Below are positions 116 to 59,543 of a stretch of 64,000 bases of DNA, one piece after another. The notes under the pieces are model-generated. The model was not told the origin of the DNA, searched no databases, and saw nothing but the letters and a program-made list of their open reading frames with translations. Made by a program: the position numbers and the translations under genes. Numbering within the stretch: position 1 is the stretch's first letter; the number at the start of each line of letters is the position of its first letter. Location of the stretch: positions 7,247-71,246 of the forward strand of contig JBGVIN010000023.1 in the NCBI GenBank assembly GCA_045123255.1. The letters are read 5' to 3'. Source of the DNA: Eubacteriales bacterium (lineage in GTDB: Bacteria; Bacillota; Clostridia; Oscillospirales; CAG-272).

Positions 116-2989
116 TTATTTTGCACTTACGGTTATAGTTGCCGCGCCCTCTCCTAAGCTGTCAACCGTGAAGGTATAGCCAAGAGGTGTGCCAAGGTCG
201 TCCGTTACCGCGCCCAAGGTGTCACCGATTTCAAAAATATAACCGTTTTCGTTCTCTATAAGCTCGATAAGATTGTTTTCTGTGCCATATTTGTCGCTTG
301 GGTCGGTGTTCGTGTTATAAACGTCATAGTAAATTTCACCCTCGTATTCCTCGGAAAAAAGGGAAGCGTTAACGTGATAAACAAGGATGCCCTCGTTTTC
401 AAAGTAGCCGCCCATACCCGAATTTAATTCGCCGTTTGTGTAGTAAACGAGAATGTAATATTCCTGATATACGCCGAGTGAGGGGTCAAAATTGTTTGCA
501 ATTATTAAGGTGTCACCGTTTTTGGAAAACTCCTCAAGCGTTACGGTAATTTCAGTATCGGTTACAACCAAGCGTGAGGATTTAATCCAACCGAAATTGA
601 ATTTTGTGTAGGCGTTGTGGTCGCCAATTTCCGCATCCATAATATCGTTGCCGTCAAGAGGGGACGAGCCTGTGTATCCCGTGTCGTAATAGTCCTCGCT
701 ACCGAGAATATGTCCAAATTCGTGAATGAAGGTGTACGGATTTATAATCTCGGTGTTTGTGTAATCCTTGTTAAGCTCGATGTCCTCGTGAAGGAAGCTA
801 TATGATGCCCAAAGGTAATCGTTTGCGCTCACTCCGTCGTATTCGTAATAATAATCATTTGCGTCCGTATAGGTGTTCCAATATCTGTACGCCCAATAAA
901 AATCCGTTTCCTCGTCAATTTTAAGCGTTGTAACAAGCACAACCGCGTCGATTATTTGGTTTTCGTCGCTGTCAAACTCCGAAAGGTCCATTGTTTTCGA
1001 GAGGTAAGCAAGCGCCTCGTCCATTACCATTTGGTCACCGATAAGCTCGCCGTCCTGCTTTTGATTTGCATAATATGTGCTTGGCTTTGAGGGACGGAAC
1101 CATTCGTCCACCACGGTAATATCAAGCGTTAGCTGACCCATGCTTGATATGTAGTAATAATCGTAAACAGAGTAGTAGTCGGTTTTGCCGTCCTTATAAA
1201 ACGCTTTTTTGATGTTTTCTATATCGTAGCCGTACGTGCTAGCCTGTCTGTCGCTAAATTCAACGGGAATAACCAAAACGCTTGGTGAACCGACAGTTGG
1301 ACAGCCGTCGATGTAGTAGCCCTGGTCGGTTACGTCCTTTATCTTGTCAGCATCCGTAAAATCTATATCGTATATTCCGTCGCCGTCATCCTTCGGCAGA
1401 GACGCACCTGCGTTTGTTATTACGTTTTTGTTTTCCTCGGGCAAATTGCCACCCTCGTTATCGCCCGTGTTGCCACCGTCACCCTCGTCGCTTGCTTCAT
1501 AGTAAGCATCTACGTCAACGTAGTAAGCGCCCTCGTATTCATAGTAGCAAACGTCAACGAAAACGCCGTTTTTTGAATATAAATACCATGTGTCACCGTA
1601 TTCGTCAACCTCCTCACTGTCCTTTGAAAAGTCGGAAAACATTGCAAGATACCACCCGAATGCGGTTTCGCTGTCGCAAAGTGCGGAGTAGTAAACGCCG
1701 ATATAGCCGTCCTCGTCGTACGCTTCTATATAGTAATCGTTATTCGGCAAAAAGGGAATAACAAATCCTATATATTCATTGTAGGTTGATTTTTCCTCGG
1801 CGGTAAAGCCGTAATATAAATGCTCGCCGTCCGTTTCCCCACCGGGGTTTTCTCCGCCGTCGGGATTTTCATCTCCGCCGCTCTCGCTCGCCTCTTTATA
1901 CGCATCAACGTCAACGTAAGAAACGCCCTCGTATTCATAGTAGCAAATATCTATATAAACGTTGCCTCTTGAAAAGAGATACCAAACGTCGCCGTACTCG
2001 TCCTTTTCTTCACCGTCGCTTACGTATGAGGAATACGCCATAAGGTAGCCGTCAAATTCATCTCTACTTCCGCAAACGGCAGAGAGGTAAACACCGCGGT
2101 ATCCGTCCTCGTCGTAGCCCTCTACGTAGTAATCGTCAGTTGGCAAAAAGGGAATAACGAAGCCTACGTATTCATTGTAGGTTGATTTTTCATCGCTTGT
2201 AAATTCGTTATATATGTATTCGCCGTCCGTGCCGCTATCGGGATTTTCGGGTGTTACTGTGCCCGAGCTTTCTTGTCCTAAGTAAATAACGTCAATAGCT
2301 TCAACGTAGAGCCTGTCGTTTTTGTCAGCTCCGCTAACGGTAACGGTTATCTCGCCTACACCGCTATTTGAAGTAATTGTAAGCGTGTTGCCGCTTTGTG
2401 TCGGCGTGCTGCCGCCCGATACTGTTAGCTTACCGCTTCCGTTTTTACCGTCGGAGAAGGTGATAATTACGGATTTTATTTCGCATCCGTTTTTCGCCAC
2501 AACCGTAAGCGTGCCGCCGTTTTGGTAAATTCTTATCGCACCGCTATATAAAGCAGGCTCAGTGTTGGCACTACCCTTACCAAAGGTAACGAAAATATTG
2601 CTATCAAGCTTTATTTCCTTACCGCTTACAACGTCACCGTTTACACCCTTACCAATGCTTGCTGCCATTTCGTCGGCAGTTTTTGAAGCGGTGATTTCCA
2701 CTGTGCTCGGCGTGTCGCTCGGCTTGTCGGGGTCGTTTCCGTCGCCTGTATTTTCAGACCCTCCGCCCGTTCCGTCGCCTGTATTTGTATCGCCTGTTCC
2801 GCCGCCCTCGCCTGTGCTTGGCGTGTCACTCGGCTTGTCCGTATCGGTGCTATCCCCGCTCGGCTTTTCCGTATCGGTATTACCGCCCACGTCGGTTGAC
2901 GTGTCCGTGTCCGTGCCGCTCGGTACGCACGCGGCAAGCGTTGCCACCACCAAAAGCAGCACTAAAATTATGCCCAAAAGCTTTTTCAT
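116..2989 (-). CDS. Secreted lipoprotein, M6 (immune inhibitor A-like) zinc metalloprotease with tandem-repeat region
   Basis: ORF 116..3076 trimmed to the ATG at 2989 (GAGG about 6 nt upstream). N-terminus MKKLLGIILVLLLVVATLAAC is a signal peptide plus lipobox Cys. It has a G/T/D/S/P-rich linker and two 132-aa tandem repeats. The C-terminal half carries VLVIPVEFSD and HEFGHILG (HExxH) motifs typical of M6 peptidases. Confidence 0.8.
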   Translation of the reverse strand: MKKLLGIILVLLLVVATLAACVPSGTDTDTSTDVGGNTDTEKPSGDSTDTDKPSDTPSTGEGGGTGDTNTGDGTGGGSENTGDGNDPDKPSDTPSTVEITASKTADEMAASIGKGVNGDVVSGKEIKLDSNIFVTFGKGSANTEPALYSGAIRIYQNGGTLTVVAKNGCEIKSVIITFSDGKNGSGKLTVSGGSTPTQSGNTLTITSNSGVGEITVTVSGADKNDRLYVEAIDVIYLGQESSGTVTPENPDSGTDGEYIYNEFTSDEKSTYNEYVGFVIPFLPTDDYYVEGYDEDGYRGVYLSAVCGSRDEFDGYLMAYSSYVSDGEEKDEYGDVWYLFSRGNVYIDICYYEYEGVSYVDVDAYKEASESGGDENPDGGENPGGETDGEHLYYGFTAEEKSTYNEYIGFVIPFLPNNDYYIEAYDEDGYIGVYYSALCDSETAFGWYLAMFSDFSKDSEEVDEYGDTWYLYSKNGVFVDVCYYEYEGAYYVDVDAYYEASDEGDGGNTGDNEGGNLPEENKNVITNAGASLPKDDGDGIYDIDFTDADKIKDVTDQGYYIDGCPTVGSPSVLVIPVEFSDRQASTYGYDIENIKKAFYKDGKTDYYSVYDYYYISSMGQLTLDITVVDEWFRPSKPSTYYANQKQDGELIGDQMVMDEALAYLSKTMDLSEFDSDENQIIDAVVLVTTLKIDEETDFYWAYRYWNTYTDANDYYYEYDGVSANDYLWASYSFLHEDIELNKDYTNTEIINPYTFIHEFGHILGSEDYYDTGYTGSSPLDGNDIMDAEIGDHNAYTKFNFGWIKSSRLVVTDTEITVTLEEFSKNGDTLIIANNFDPSLGVYQEYYILVYYTNGELNSGMGGYFENEGILVYHVNASLFSEEYEGEIYYDVYNTNTDPSDKYGTENNLIELIENENGYIFEIGDTLGAVTDDLGTPLGYTFTVDSLGEGAATITVSAK
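1480..2240 (-). repeat. In-frame tandem duplication (2 x 396 nt) inside the metalloprotease gene
   Basis: The 18-mer cattgtaggttgattttt occurs at 1777 and 2173, a period of 396 nt (132 aa). The protein repeats run EKSTYNEY[VI]GFVIPFLP...YYEYEG..YVDVDAY. Confidence 0.85.
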
Positions 2990-3315
2990 AAAAACCTCAT
3001 TTCCGCCGCCCAAGCAGCCGCTTTTTGCACGCCACCCAAGCAACATTTTTCCGCGCCGTTTTCCCTCTCGGCGCATCTTACACCTAAATTATACCATACG
3101 CTAATTCGTTTTTCAAATAAAATATTAAAATTAAGAAGTGAACAAGCTAATAAATTGTTGATGTTAAAATATTTTTTATTTTGTAAGGGATTTGTTATAT
3201 ATGCCTTGCCTTGTTTGACAACAAATAAAAACGGTGAACATTTTTTATAGTTGAAAGACAACGAATTTTATGGTACACTGTCTTTATGAAGATACACAAA
3301 TGGGAGGAAGCTTTT

Positions 3316-18310: not shown

Positions 18311-18597
18311 ATATATATAATATATAGTAGAGTTTTACGCGCGTAGGCGCGATTAACTGTGGCGTGTGCAATATTTGCGCGTAGGCGCGAGTATTTACGC
18401 AAATTATTTACTTATTATAAAATTAGGCTACATTTTTACTCATTTTTCGCAAAAATTGTAAATTTTTTTTGAATTTTCCCTCTTTTTATATATATTTTTA
18501 TATATAATATATTGCAATTTCAAAAATAGTATGGTAAAATATGCATAAATGAGGATGGTTTAACCAAACTCGATATTTTGTAAGGGGGTATACTGAA

Positions 18598-18958: not shown

Positions 18959-19918
18959 ATGAATATTGAAATTTGCAAATACAAAAACGGTGCGCCCTGT
19001 GCCTTTTCGTTTACCTTTGACGACGGATGCTACTATGATTCTACCTGTGAGGTTATCGAGAAATTTGAGGACGTGTACGAAAAGACGGGTGTTAAAATTA
19101 AAGCAACCGTTGGAATTACCGTTGGCTTTATGCACGAGCGCTTAATAAATATGTGGAAGGACGCTATTTCCAAGGACTATTTTGATATAGCATCACACAC
19201 AATAGGACACGACGTTGCGTTTTGCTCCGAAACACCTTATGAAAAGAGAAAGGGCGATGCCGAGGGCGCACAGTTAAAGCTGCGTGAGATGTTCCCGGGA
19301 CAGGACGTTAAGACGTTTATTTTTGCAGGCGGTGCGCGCGACGAGGAAGGAACGAAGCCGCTTGATGAGCATTATATCGCTTGCCGTGCGGGCGAACACG
19401 GTGTAAACCAACCCGGTAAAATTGATTGGCTCGACGTTAACTGTCTTACAGCTAAGCTTGCTATGGACTTAGATTATTACAAGGATTATATCGACCAAAC
19501 GGTTAGCGAATGTGGCTGGGGCGTTCAAATGAACCACTGGATTACCCACAAGACAGAGGACGTTCACCACTCACAAAACGCGGAGCAATTTAAGGTTGAA
19601 TGTGACTATCTTGCTAAAAAAGCTCAGGGTGGCAAAATTTGGACAGGCTCGTTTGAGGAGGTTGCCTCGTACATTAGAAAATATGAAAACAGCACGCTTT
19701 CAGTTAGTGAGGAAAACGGAAAATTAAAGGTGGAAATTCTTACAAATAGCGACACTCCGTCAGCTATTTTAGACACTCCCCTCACTATTTCCATTGAAAG
19801 TGAGTCAGATATTTTGGTTTACAGCGAAAACGAAGATACCAAGCGCGTATCTCCAAATAAAGACGGCAAAATTTACTTAGACGTGGTAAAATCCGTTATT
19901 TTCGAGCCTATTAAATAA
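18959..19918 (+). CDS. Polysaccharide deacetylase (CE4)-like protein, no signal peptide
   Basis: FTFDDG and ASHTIGHD motifs. Confidence 0.7.
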   Translation: MNIEICKYKNGAPCAFSFTFDDGCYYDSTCEVIEKFEDVYEKTGVKIKATVGITVGFMHERLINMWKDAISKDYFDIASHTIGHDVAFCSETPYEKRKGDAEGAQLKLREMFPGQDVKTFIFAGGARDEEGTKPLDEHYIACRAGEHGVNQPGKIDWLDVNCLTAKLAMDLDYYKDYIDQTVSECGWGVQMNHWITHKTEDVHHSQNAEQFKVECDYLAKKAQGGKIWTGSFEEVASYIRKYENSTLSVSEENGKLKVEILTNSDTPSAILDTPLTISIESESDILVYSENEDTKRVSPNKDGKIYLDVVKSVIFEPIK

Positions 19919-19924
19919 TCTTTT

Positions 19925-19959
19925 AATCCCTCTTTGGTTACTCCAAGGAGGGATTTTTT
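19925..19959 (+). terminator. Terminator of the CE4 gene
   Basis: aatccctc...gagggatt followed by ttttt. Confidence 0.75.
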
Positions 19960-19979: not shown

Positions 19980-20048
19980 CGCGAAGCGACTTAATCCACC
20001 AAAGGCGGACTTAATCCATTTATGGACTTCATCGCGTAAGCGATTTCA
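19980..20048 (+). repeat. Hairpin/linker array A (linkers ACTTAAT, ACTTAAT, ACTTCAT, ATTTCAT)
   Basis: The hairpins cgcGAAgcg, ccaccAAAggcgg, ccatTTatgg and cgcGTAAgcg are each followed by a 7-nt linker. Confidence 0.7.
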
Positions 20049-20174
20049 TTTTCCATTATCCCCCTCCCGTTTGTTTGGTACGTACCGTTTGGGCGGGAGG
20101 CAGGTTGCCTCCCCTACAAGGTGCCGAACATTCCCCCTTGTCATTCCGAGCCTGTCGAGAAATCTCAAAGCGGA

Positions 20175-20406
20175 CAACCAATGGTTGCCCCTATATCCAT
20201 CAACCGCAGGTTGCATATCATCACACATAGTGTGCATATCACCAATGCAAAGCATTGTATATCATCACCGCAGGTGTATATCATCAAGGCATTCGCCTTG
20301 TATGTTCCTCACGCACCATAGGTGCATATCACGTGGCTGAGCCACATATCACGCCTTGCTTACAAGGTTATATCACGTGCCCACGCACATATCACGTCCG
20401 CAGGAC
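20175..20406 (+). repeat. Hairpin/linker array B (11 hairpins, linker [CT]ATATCA[CT])
   Basis: The 11 hairpins are caaccAATggttg, caaccGCAggttg, cacacATAgtgtg, caatgcAAAgcattg, caccGCAggtg, aaggcATTCgcctt, gcaccATAggtgc, gtggcTGAgccac, ccttgCTTAcaagg, gtgcCCACgcac and gtccGCAggac. They are separated by catatcat, catatcac, tatatcat and atatcac linkers. Confidence 0.8.
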
Positions 20407-20530
20407 ATAAAGTCCTCTTTTGTGTTGGTTTTATGAAAATTTAATTTTTTTATAAAAAGGTCTTTTATTTTAGAAAAATGTGTGCTATAATAGGCACGCT
20501 AAATTTTTTATTATATTAAGGACGGATGAA

Positions 20531-22351
20531 ATGCTTAGAGAAGATTTAAGAAACGTTGCAATCATTGCCCACGTTGACCACGGAAAAACAACCCTCGTTG
20601 ACGGCCTTTTGGAGCAGGGCGGCGCATACCACGAAAATCAATCCACTACCGACCGTGTAATGGACTCAAACGCACTCGAAAAGGAGCGCGGCATTACTAT
20701 CTTGGCAAAAAATACAGCTATTCGCTACGGCGATAAGAAAATAAACGTAATTGACACCCCCGGCCACGCGGACTTTGGCGGTGAGGTTGAAAGAATTCTC
20801 AAAATGGTTAACGGCGTTATTTTGCTCGTTGACGCGGCAGAGGGTCCTATGCCTCAAACTCGCTTCGTGCTTCGCAAGGCTATGGAATTAAATCACAGAA
20901 TTATCGTTGTTGTTAATAAGATTGACCGCCCCGACGCTCGTGTGCACGAGGTTATCGACGAGGTTTTGGAGCTTCTTATCGACTTAAACGCAACGGACGA
21001 GCAGCTTGACTCACCTATGCTTTTCTGCTCGGGCAGAGCAGGCACAGCATCCTTCTCACCTGACGTAGAGGGCAAGGACTTAAAGCCGCTTCTTGATACT
21101 ATCATCGACTATATTCCCGAGCCTGAGGGAGAAGAGGACGAGGATTTACAGCTTCTCGTTTCCGCGATAGACTATAACGAATACGTTGGTAAGATCGGTA
21201 TCGGTAGAATTGAGCGCGGTACGTTGAAGGTAAACCAAGAGGTTTCCGTTTGTAACTACCACTCAGATGCTTCACCTAAGCGTGCAAAAATTGTTTCAAT
21301 CTATCAGTTTGAGGGTCTTTCACGTCAACCCGCAACAAGCGCAACGGTTGGTGATATCGTTTGCTTTGCAGGTGTTGAGGACCTTTCAATCGGTGATACG
21401 CTTTGCTCGGTTAATAACCCTGAGCCACTTGAATTTGTTAAGGTTTCCGAGCCGACAATGGAAATGACGTTTAGTGTAAACGATAGCCCATTTGCAGGCA
21501 AGGAGGGTAAGTTTGTTACCTCACGTCAAATCCGCGACCGTCTTTATAAGGAAACACTTAAGGACGTTTCACTCCGTGTAACTGACGGCGACACAACCGA
21601 CTCATTTAAGGTTGCGGGCAGAGGCGAAATGCACTTATCAATTCTTATCGAAACAATGCGCCGCGAGGGCTACGAGCTTTGCTGCTCAACTCCGCGTGTG
21701 CTTTATAAGACAATTGACGGCACACTTCACGAGCCGATGGAAAGAGTTTCAATTGACGTTCCAGATGAAAGCGTTGGCGCAGTCGTTCAAAAGCTCGGCT
21801 CTCGTAAGGGTGAGCTGCTTGAAATGAATAAGGCAGGCACAAGAACACGTCTTGAATATTTAATTCCGTCAAGATGCTTATTCGGTTACAGAAGTGAATT
21901 TATGACCGACACCAAGGGTGAGGGTATTCTCAACACCTTGTTTGACGGCTATCAACCCTTCAAGGGCGACGTTATCACAAGATACACAGGCTCACTTATC
22001 GCATCAGAGGACGGCGAGGCAACCTCATACGGTCTTTTCAATACACAGGACAGAGGTGCTATGTTTATCGGCGTTCAAACTCCTGTTTACGAGGGAATGA
22101 TCGTTGGTGAATGTCCAAAAATGGAGGATATCGTTGTTAACGTTTGTAAGAAAAAGCACTTAACCGCTATTCGTTCAAAGGGTGCGGACGAGGCTCTTAT
22201 CTTAACTCCACCAAGACAAATGTCACTTGAACAGGCAATTGAGTATATTGCTGAGGACGAGCTTATTGAGGTTACTCCAAAGTCACTTCGTTTAAGAAAG
22301 AAAATTCTTAATACTCAATTAAGATTAAAGGCATACGCAAAATTGAAATAA
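20531..22351 (+). CDS. typA: Translational GTPase TypA/BipA
   Basis: RNVAIIAHVDHGKTTLVD, DTPGHADFGGEVER and NKIDR motifs. Trimmed to the ATG at 20531. Confidence 0.93.
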   Translation: MLREDLRNVAIIAHVDHGKTTLVDGLLEQGGAYHENQSTTDRVMDSNALEKERGITILAKNTAIRYGDKKINVIDTPGHADFGGEVERILKMVNGVILLVDAAEGPMPQTRFVLRKAMELNHRIIVVVNKIDRPDARVHEVIDEVLELLIDLNATDEQLDSPMLFCSGRAGTASFSPDVEGKDLKPLLDTIIDYIPEPEGEEDEDLQLLVSAIDYNEYVGKIGIGRIERGTLKVNQEVSVCNYHSDASPKRAKIVSIYQFEGLSRQPATSATVGDIVCFAGVEDLSIGDTLCSVNNPEPLEFVKVSEPTMEMTFSVNDSPFAGKEGKFVTSRQIRDRLYKETLKDVSLRVTDGDTTDSFKVAGRGEMHLSILIETMRREGYELCCSTPRVLYKTIDGTLHEPMERVSIDVPDESVGAVVQKLGSRKGELLEMNKAGTRTRLEYLIPSRCLFGYRSEFMTDTKGEGILNTLFDGYQPFKGDVITRYTGSLIASEDGEATSYGLFNTQDRGAMFIGVQTPVYEGMIVGECPKMEDIVVNVCKKKHLTAIRSKGADEALILTPPRQMSLEQAIEYIAEDELIEVTPKSLRLRKKILNTQLRLKAYAKLK

Positions 22352-59359: not shown

Positions 59360-59543
59360 TGACGCAAACGCGTCAATGAAATGAATCCCCAAGGATTCTT
59401 GAAATGACCTTTCGGTCATGAAATGATTGCTGTGCAATCGTGAAATGCTCTTTTGAGCATAGGATTCATTTTATTTCATGATATTGTAAATATCATTTCA
59501 AGACAAGCTTGCTTGTCATTTCAAGTGCGAAAGCACATTTCAT
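59360..59543. repeat. Hairpin/linker array E (8 G...C hairpins; ATGAAAT-type x4, centre, ATTTCAT/ATTTCAA x4)
   Basis: It starts 1 nt after the carB stop. See the findings for the unit list. Further hairpins (ttttgccAAggcaaaa, gcttgcTTGgcaagc) extend to 59614. Confidence 0.85.

Follow-up and report, generated by a model that had tools for sequence, protein, structure and literature searches.

Gut-1 (RF01706), whose model consists of three hairpins with GUGAAAU linkers, was rated as certainly RNA, from covariation, by Weinberg et al. (2010; PMC2864571), and the authors' description says only that the motif is found in human-gut sequences (PMC2864571). It has been in Rfam since 2010 with one descriptive sentence and no function, and a literature search on it retrieved a benchmarking paper only. 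Repetitive extragenic palindromes (REPs), with the bacterial interspersed mosaic elements (BIMEs) and REP doublets (REPINs) that they form, are short palindromes found in intergenic mosaics after stop codons or terminators, in both orientations and in inverted doublets, that vary among strains and go with REP-associated tyrosine transposases (RAYT; TnpA_REP, Y1 HUH). A third described system is that of the c(GNA)g and c(GNNA)g DNA mini-hairpins (GCGNAGC, GCGNNAGC), which are extra-stable, nuclease-resistant and poorly bound by single-stranded DNA-binding protein (SSB) and are present at the G4 and St-1 complementary-strand origins and at RSF1010 ssiA (PMC13037366); the stability of d(GNA) hairpins depends strongly on the closing pair (PMC3201870). 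Here we describe two arrays of tagged mini-hairpins, A and B, that share traits with all three systems. They lie in the 612-nt spacer between a gene for a CE4-like polysaccharide deacetylase homologue and typA in a 64,000-nt stretch of DNA (hereafter the window) from a Eubacteriales bacterium (GCA_045123255.1, contig JBGVIN010000023.1, positions 7,247 to 71,246).

The spacer is best read as a mosaic bounded by a terminator and a promoter and built of extragenic palindromic repeats: a GTAG-type REP doublet is flanked by two Gut-1-class arrays. Array A (19980-20049, + strand) follows the terminator of the CE4-like gene and comprises the four linked hairpins seen in the preliminary description of the locus, each with a 3' tag: cgcgaagcg (19980-19988; cgc.gaa.gcg, which includes GCGAAGC) with ACTTAAT, ccaccaaaggcgg (19996-20008; ccacc.aaa.ggcgg) with ACTTAAT, ccatttatgg (20016-20025; ccat.tt.atgg) with ACTTCAT, and cgcgtaagcg (20033-20042; cgc.gtaa.gcg) with ATTTCAT ending at 20049, giving the tag consensus AYTTMAT. 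Array B (20175-20406, + strand) contains the 11 ATATCA-linked hairpins also reported there, at 20175-20187, 20201-20213, 20222-20234, 20243-20257, 20266-20276, 20285-20300, 20313-20325, 20333-20345, 20354-20367, 20377-20388 and 20396-20406. It is divided into sub-array B1 (20175-20300), with six hairpins closed C...G and YATATCAY tags, and sub-array B2 (20313-20406), whose five hairpins, the last of the array, are closed G...C and carry ATATCAC tags. An odd junction linker, TATGTTCCTCAC (20301-20312), joins the two. Apart from this junction and a degenerate first tag (CCCCTATATCCAT), the tag ATATCA occurs eight times in exact form, with spacings of 21, 23, 19, 48, 20, 24 and 19 nt. All 11 stems are different and all are paired, and GCA forms the loop in 3 of the 11. 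Tags were uniform within an array and different between arrays, in agreement with the earlier proposal that the linker is set per array. The building block of these arrays is a perfectly paired, variable stem of 4-6 bp, closed by C:G around a GNA or GNNA loop and followed by an AT-rich AWWTCAY tag of 7-8 nt.

The shuffled-sequence control that had been proposed for this periodicity was run. Array B contains 11 perfect hairpins of at least 4 bp compared to 2.67 +/- 1.31 in dinucleotide shuffles (maximum of 7 in 1000), and its fold z-scores were -5.7 for the + strand as DNA, -5.6 for the + strand as RNA and -3.0 for the - strand as RNA. The window contains 33 ATATCAY words where 11.9 are expected. 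Array A alone was not significant by shuffling (2 hairpins of at least 4 bp vs. 0.63 +/- 0.71); what validates it is, by sequence comparison, the presence of homologous units in relatives. The open reading frames (ORFs) called across the block (20071-20340, 20121-20321, 20046-20255 on the - strand and 20255-20410) matched no Pfam family at E-values up to 1, with one chance match of 12.5 bits. Because no Pfam family was found, the units are 19-24 nt long and the whole block is missing in several close relatives (L136/L137, L142/L143 and L004-L007), the block is not a decayed gene; a degraded coding sequence was rejected on these grounds, and the calls were artefacts, as had been suspected. BLAST searches of the spacer against cultured-phage and plasmid collections gave no match. 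Arrays of this kind break short-read assemblies and cause spurious ORF calls.

The Rfam Gut-1 model aligned over its full length (1-77) to the minus strand of both sub-arrays, with 33.0 bits (E 1.6e-4) for B2 at 20321-20397 and 23.5 bits (E 0.038) for B1 at 20210-20286, the E-values referring to a 711-nt search. Neither score reaches the gathering value of 50 bits, and there was no match at that threshold in the whole window. Where the model has GUGAAAU as linker, the aligned sequence reads GUGAUAU or AUGAUAU; ATATCAC has GTGATAT as its complement, one base away from GTGAAAT. The preliminary description had held ATATCAC to be unrelated to the ATGAAWT linkers elsewhere in the window, and this did not stand. 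In addition to the alignment, the array A tags ATTTCAT and ACTTAAT stand in complement orientation to ATGAAAT and ATGAATT, the tags at 51.5, 52.5, 59.4, 62.0 and 62.8 kb, and ATTTCAT and ATATCAC occur together in one array of the GC-rich viral contig L048 and abut at position 59530 of the window. The traits shared with Gut-1 are small hairpins in tandem whose stems are complementary yet unrelated to each other, loops of 3 nt with C:G closure, a constant RUGAAAU-type heptamer linker and an origin in gut metagenomes. Covariation was also found: all stems differ yet pair, a compensatory change links 20378 and 20387, and the same slots hold different stems in metagenome copies. The differences are the scores below 50, the linker that is one base off on the minus strand, the 11 units compared to three in the model and the position of this copy outside an evident transcription unit. 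Sequence comparison thus places the arrays in the Gut-1 repeat class as a new tag variant (GUGAUAU/ATATCAY, AYTTMAT). What is new here beyond the tag variant is the coupling of tag and loop to one strand and the pattern of constraint seen in orthologues.

The coupling was evaluated in 27 arrays and half-arrays from the window, six related loci in metagenome-assembled genomes (MAGs) and nine viral contigs, with every tag set to AWWTCAY. These contained 109 distinct hairpins, of which 63 had triloops: 26 of these were GNA and one was the complement, TNC (p = 4e-7). For tetraloops on the AWWTCAY strand, GNNA occurred eight times and TNNC not at all, and the closing pair was 5'C-G3' in 86 of the 109 hairpins. 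An independent set of 10 metagenome contigs, retrieved by the TATATCATC pattern, behaved in the same way. Loops flanked by ATATCAY were G..A in 15/24 cases and T..C in 0/24, and loops flanked by RTGAKAT were G..A in 0/24 and T..C in 16/24. Both tag types therefore show the same coupling of tag orientation with loop orientation, so that a hairpin and its tag make up one oriented module. Stems were almost purely Watson-Crick and G.T was not favored among the rare mismatches, of which too few were informative for a test of G.T vs. A.C asymmetry. The grammar of GNA loops on the AWWTCAY strand makes the question of RNA vs. single-stranded DNA (ssDNA) directly testable.

The L-numbered relatives of the locus are ruminant-gut Clostridia MAGs and contigs; other L numbers denote viral or metagenome contigs. 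Conservation was estimated from one orthologous pair, the window and L138, which share nine of the 11 array B units. The tags showed one difference in 76 positions, which falls in the degenerate first tag; the stems showed three in 84 and the loops nine in 28, with several of the loop changes being to or between GNA loops (loop vs. stem p = 1.6e-4; loop vs. tag p = 2e-5). Two of the stem differences, 20378 T>C and 20387 A>G, form a compensatory change from T:A to C:G. The two genomes agree letter for letter in the odd junction linker and also in the C/T pattern of the tags, so that homogenization within the array is not the cause of the conservation. The units were thus inherited, with tag sequence and stem pairing kept while loops drifted. 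Two exact one-unit indels, each with one tag, separate the window from L138 (units 20222-20234 and 20333-20345), and that of the cacac unit is a deletion in L138, since both L002 and the window keep this unit. Adjacent non-array spacer differed at 15 of 173 positions and four-fold sites of the CE4-like gene at 52 of 102; between the window and L002, 42% of the four-fold sites differed in the CE4-like gene and 27% in typA. The contrast of loops with stems and tags is a comparison within the array and does not depend on calibration by synonymous sites.

Array content changed among relatives, as the earlier suggestion of copy-number variation among strains would have it: array A has 1, 3 or 4 units and array B 9 or 11. 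With identities given for the CE4-like protein, L134/L135 (89%) have a one-unit array A and the REP truncated as in the window; L138/L139 (82%) have array A with one unit, three REPs and array B; and L002 (84%) has array A with three units and a REP, followed by a TATGGAAT-tagged array whose first two hairpins match array B hairpins 2 and 3 of the window, the first two there with full ATATCA tags. In L001 (86%), a 16-unit AATTCAT array occupies the same point, just 5' of tcttttgtgtt...ttatgaaaattt; at least three of its units share both stem and loop exactly with units of the window arrays at about 51.5 and 52.5 kb (confirmed for stems of at least 5 bp), and two further units look identical by eye. 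L011 (positions 1-430) contains a higher-order repeat with a leader cggcgacccgttatcaa and the hairpin cacgca.ttta.tgcgtg, followed alternately by TATGGAAT- and TATATCAT-tagged arrays, and internal block duplication was seen in both L001 and L011. Logan contigs from the source sample and from a bovine sample carry a variant in which the REP is directly followed by tcaaccgaaggttg-tatgttcc; here B1 appears to have been reduced to one unit. L142/L143 (78%) have REP and terminator only, and L136/L137 (82%) have a 95-nt spacer without terminator, REP or array. L003-L007 (56-68%) have no arrays; the L004-L007 spacer of about 150-170 nt holds the terminator and the same promoter block only, and that of L003 is longer with other hairpins inside. 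Units identical in stem and loop were found at unrelated loci and the same stems recur across different metagenomes. The arrays turned over by loss or gain of whole units at repeated tags and by replacement with family arrays that share unit repertoires. The spacer is thus a hot spot, with block exchange of arrays between scattered members of the family.

The larger GC-rich hairpins between the arrays, a block noted in the preliminary description, are not part of either array. The GC hairpin GGGAGGCAGGTTGCCTCCC (20095-20113) belongs to a GTAG-type REP at 20095-20117 on the - strand, which reads GTAG plus GGGAGGCA-ACC-TGCCTCCC. Of the elements in the spacer, only this block has the REP signature, a minus-strand GTAG plus GGGAGGCAACCTGCCTCCC in a GC-rich, imperfect palindrome, with the general form (T)GTAG followed by GGGAGG-arm-loop-arm; the tagged mini-hairpins have no GTAG. 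A stump of one arm of an inverted partner (ccccctcccg, 20060-20069) was recognized in alignments with relatives, the full GTAGGGGAGGATATCATCCTCCC being kept in L138. L138 has three GTAG REP copies (an inverted pair and a third), and L002 and L142 one each. By this signature, the GC block is assigned to REP/REPIN-type elements, separate from the arrays, and the spacer as a whole therefore resembles a BIME-like mosaic. A conserved 57-nt tail (aaggtgccgaacatt...) with the segment gtcattccgagcctgtcgagaaatctcaaagcgga leads from the REP into array B (20118-20174, + strand; about 91% identity to L138). Part of this tail (cattccgagcctgtcgag..., 20133-20166) has a counterpart, at 3 mismatches, in metatranscriptome X23, on a 755-nt contig (depth 51) whose flanks repeat 'CATTCCGAG'; the match may represent a separate repeat that is abundant in the RNA of another organism. 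An RNA contig of a related strain in run X24 has a REP (CGGGAGGGAAAACCCCTCCCCTACA) after the typA stop codon, where the window (22351) has none. Two copies of the palindrome cgcgcGTAGgcgcg, with GTAG in the loop, stand in the next spacer upstream (18330-18395), after the terminator of a DUF1385 gene, and are another REP-like word.

Comparison with the described ssDNA elements led us to a tentative reading, to which we give somewhat less than an even chance, of the arrays as REP/BIME-like elements whose units act as folded ssDNA and whose tag serves as a handle read by its sequence. Once replication or an enzyme acting on ssDNA has opened the duplex, the tagged strand would snap into c(GNA)g mini-hairpins; being very stable, nuclease resistant and poor in SSB, these would display the tag as a single-stranded handle for a putative reader, in analogy to REPs and BIMEs with their HUH (RAYT) enzymes or to hairpin-marked single-strand initiation (ssi) signals. 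The reading is suggested by the loop and closing-pair grammar that is special to DNA, by the avoidance of wobble pairs in stems, by an orientation that ignores transcription, by the position of array B outside a transcription unit and by the REP in the same mosaic. Extragenic position, use of both orientations, inverted doublets and strain variation are shared with REPs and BIMEs, and a genuine GTAG-REP (20095-20117) is part of this mosaic. The tagged units differ in their stems, which are very short and come in many sequences where REPs have one or a few conserved palindromes (109 distinct hairpins in 27 arrays, with a limited repertoire recurring between loci), in the AT-rich heptamer 3' of the hairpin rather than a 5' GTAG, and in standing head to tail in numbers of up to 16. 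With the ssi signals built from d(GCGAAGC) or d(GCGNNAGC) (PMC13037366), they share the GNA or GNNA loop closed by 5'C-G3' on one defined strand. Those signals are single sites of one to three hairpins in replicons with an ssDNA stage, whereas the units here form chromosomal tandem arrays with a constant tag, and a role in priming is proposed by analogy only. A broader version of the proposal, in which Gut-1-class arrays in general are not RNAs but a widespread ssDNA signal system of gut Clostridia and their phages with a putative reader protein, is doubtful at present. Selection would then keep units in one or both orientations, and whichever strand a passing fork or an ssDNA enzyme exposes would show SSB-free, nuclease-proof hairpins with their tag, as a functional analogue of REP/BIME or ssi priming signals. 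If the ssDNA reading is true, abundant uncultured gut Clostridia and their phages carry a REP-like feature of different design and a novel enzyme.

Several observations weigh against the ssDNA reading, and some of them favor a structured RNA, that is, a transcribed Gut-1 noncoding RNA or untranslated-region element that serves as protein sponge, processing or stability element, or terminator-like insulator. Sister arrays of the TATGGAAT type (L002, L011) lack the GNA loop bias. In GTGAWAT-type arrays, the stem-adjacent bases can add an A:U and a U.G pair on the opposite strand only; this closure, which the R at the start of RTGAWAT permits only in RNA of that strand, matches the Rfam drawing of Gut-1 and is an RNA-like signature. 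The array at 59.4 kb is covered in metatranscriptome run X26, one of the four bovine-gut runs considered below, by contigs that are continuous from the upstream gene into the array and out to the downstream gene, and some arrays sit inside phage structural operons; arrays inside operons are transcribed passively. No enzyme or binding factor for the units was identified and no RAYT was linked to them, no genome-wide search aimed at RAYT or other HUH genes having been made. Orientation also ignores the replication direction deduced from skew: GC skew is positive and genes are mostly on the + strand across the window, the GNA strand is + for arrays A and B and - for the arrays at 62.0 and 62.8 kb, and three window arrays are mirror elements, so that a simple model of a lagging-strand template fails for arrays of single orientation. 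The whole spacer is less diverged than synonymous sites, which may reflect constraint on terminator and REP or more recent exchange, and part of the conservation could thus be due to recent exchange. The minus-strand alignments to a model rated as RNA and the weak terminator-like end of array B, a last hairpin with a T run (20402-20425), are further points for RNA. Nonetheless, a structured RNA, the main rival of the ssDNA reading, is rather unlikely. Both Gut-1 scores are below the gathering threshold, the GNA loops, a motif notable for its stability in DNA, are on the strand opposite to the Gut-1 RNA strand, the rare mismatches in the stems do not favor G.T, and orientation relative to transcription is mixed. 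The arrays come after a strong terminator and before the typA promoter block. Four bovine-gut metatranscriptomes yielded low-depth fragments (at least 95% identity) of both flanking genes and no contig over 19368-20420, a result for which depth was too low and carry-over of DNA too plausible to allow a firm conclusion. Transcription of the flanking genes would yield the strand opposite to the RUGAAAU one, and a strict sigma-70 scan of both strands detected no promoter inside the spacer.

Explanations that do without a folded functional strand were given lower probabilities. Neutral tandem repeats that arise by slippage at the tags, with stems kept palindromic by template-switch 'quasi-palindrome correction', would account for the whole-unit indels exactly at tags, the block duplications in L001 and L011, the variable presence among close relatives and the resemblance of array A units 1 and 4 to a duplicate pair. 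We consider this improbable, since conservation is far higher in tags and stems than in loops and also exceeds that of the flanking spacer, the identical junction and tag pattern in L138 shows that homogenization is not the cause, tag and loop orientation are strictly coupled across unrelated samples and the same stems recur in different metagenomes. The preliminary description had offered reiterated target duplication; in this view, each mini-hairpin would be a tiny insertion that duplicates a 7-nt target. A unit of one hairpin and one tag, and indels of exactly one unit between relatives, fit this idea, but orthologous units are inherited, the sole indel that could be polarized is a deletion and no unit insertion was observed. 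In addition, the array A tags differ among themselves (ACTTAAT, ACTTCAT, ATTTCAT), identical units and multi-unit blocks in the same order are found at unrelated loci, so that arrays move or recombine as blocks, and tags are shared by organisms that differ greatly in GC content (L048). Target duplication is therefore very improbable. The least probable explanation considered is an iteron-like array of duplex DNA binding sites for a protein, with a phasing of about 21 bp, upstream of the typA promoter. The mean spacing is close to two helical turns and the array is directly upstream of a promoter, but the spacing varies from 19 to 24 nt, a folded single strand is indicated by the compensatory change and by variable parts that are perfectly palindromic, the promoter is also found in relatives that have no array, and family arrays occur at many unrelated sites. 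The array is not a specific regulator of typA or of the CE4-like gene, since close relatives lack it.

Three other repeat systems were considered and rejected. Clustered regularly interspaced short palindromic repeats (CRISPR) have repeats of 23-50 nt, unique non-palindromic spacers and cas genes. In both, constant and variable segments alternate; here, the repeated tag has 7-8 nt, the segments in between are palindromes 11-17 nt long, neither cas genes nor a leader were found and no CRISPR repeat matched above noise. Integron attC sites are likewise recognized or selected by structure over stem sequence, have variable hairpins with short, conserved core words at their base and act as a folded single strand; they are 57-141 bp long, each with a gene cassette and an integrase, compared to the units of about 20 nt with neither cassettes nor integrase found here. 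A reading as type III antitoxin repeats was considered and rejected as well.

The genes on either side of the spacer are both on the + strand. The CE4-like protein (18959-19918, 319 amino acids) has no Pfam match itself, PF01522 being present in many of its homologues. Exact-protein look-ups with this protein and with TypA gave no match, and a scan of JGI metagenomes with the CE4-like protein found no relative. Its gene is followed by an intrinsic terminator with a 13-bp stem and a T run (19925-19959, + strand) that is conserved in L002, L134 and L138. At the right edge of array B, the weak terminator-like element at 20402-20425 (+ strand) consists of the hairpin AGGACATAAAGTCCT plus CTTTTGTGTT, and the T-rich word after the last hairpin is also present in L001 and L002. 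The typA/bipA gene (20531-22351, ATG at 20531) has Pfam domains GTP_EFTU, BipA_C and others. It is preceded by a conserved, AT-rich block (20427-20499, + strand) with an extended -10, TGcTATAAT, at 20483-20491, which consensus and conservation identify as the predicted typA promoter. Because the block is also kept in relatives without arrays, typA transcription likely starts downstream of array B, a point that the preliminary description had proposed to check. A hairpin, GTGTGC-TATAATAG-GCACGC, followed by TAAATTTTTT (20480-20499), overlaps the predicted -10 and is conserved in every relative, including the array-less ones; a role as leader or attenuator-like element, or as a structure embedded in the promoter, is conceivable.

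Pattern scans of viral contigs retrieved mostly unrelated tandem repeats (e.g., of giant viruses) and about 10 loci with true hairpin arrays. These were found near portal and structural genes, lysis genes, a reverse-transcriptase-like ORF and tRNA clusters, and their orientation relative to flanking ORFs was mixed and followed no rule. In the GC-rich phage contig L048 (3755-4405), two ATATCAC arrays stand on either side of a 98-aa ORF, which is located between the portal gene and the structural gene that follows it; from its 'EGHAG...DLICCSAS' motif, the product may be a Prp-type protease. In L257, a mirror GTGAAAT/ATTTCAC array (540-700) lies about 1 kb from a 505-aa, reverse-transcriptase-like ORF (1711-3228) with a YVDD motif.

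The canonical metagenome TATATCAT element consists of a tRNA gene, a terminator, a hairpin X, three [TATATCAT-hairpin] units, a partial inverted X and three [ATGATATR-hairpin] units; array B is an atypical, long and one-way member of this family. A fold-back in which the tags of the two halves pair would explain per-array tags in mirror elements; it is inapplicable here, arrays A and B having the same direction, and is also countered by a conserved ATGAGATA variant that is present in five metagenome copies without a compensating partner. Elements of the TATATCAT type stand directly behind a tRNA gene terminator in L362, L377, L302, L340 and L370. In such elements, the tRNA-proximal half has the same stems across samples with changes in the loop only, and the distal half has other hairpins with the same tags.

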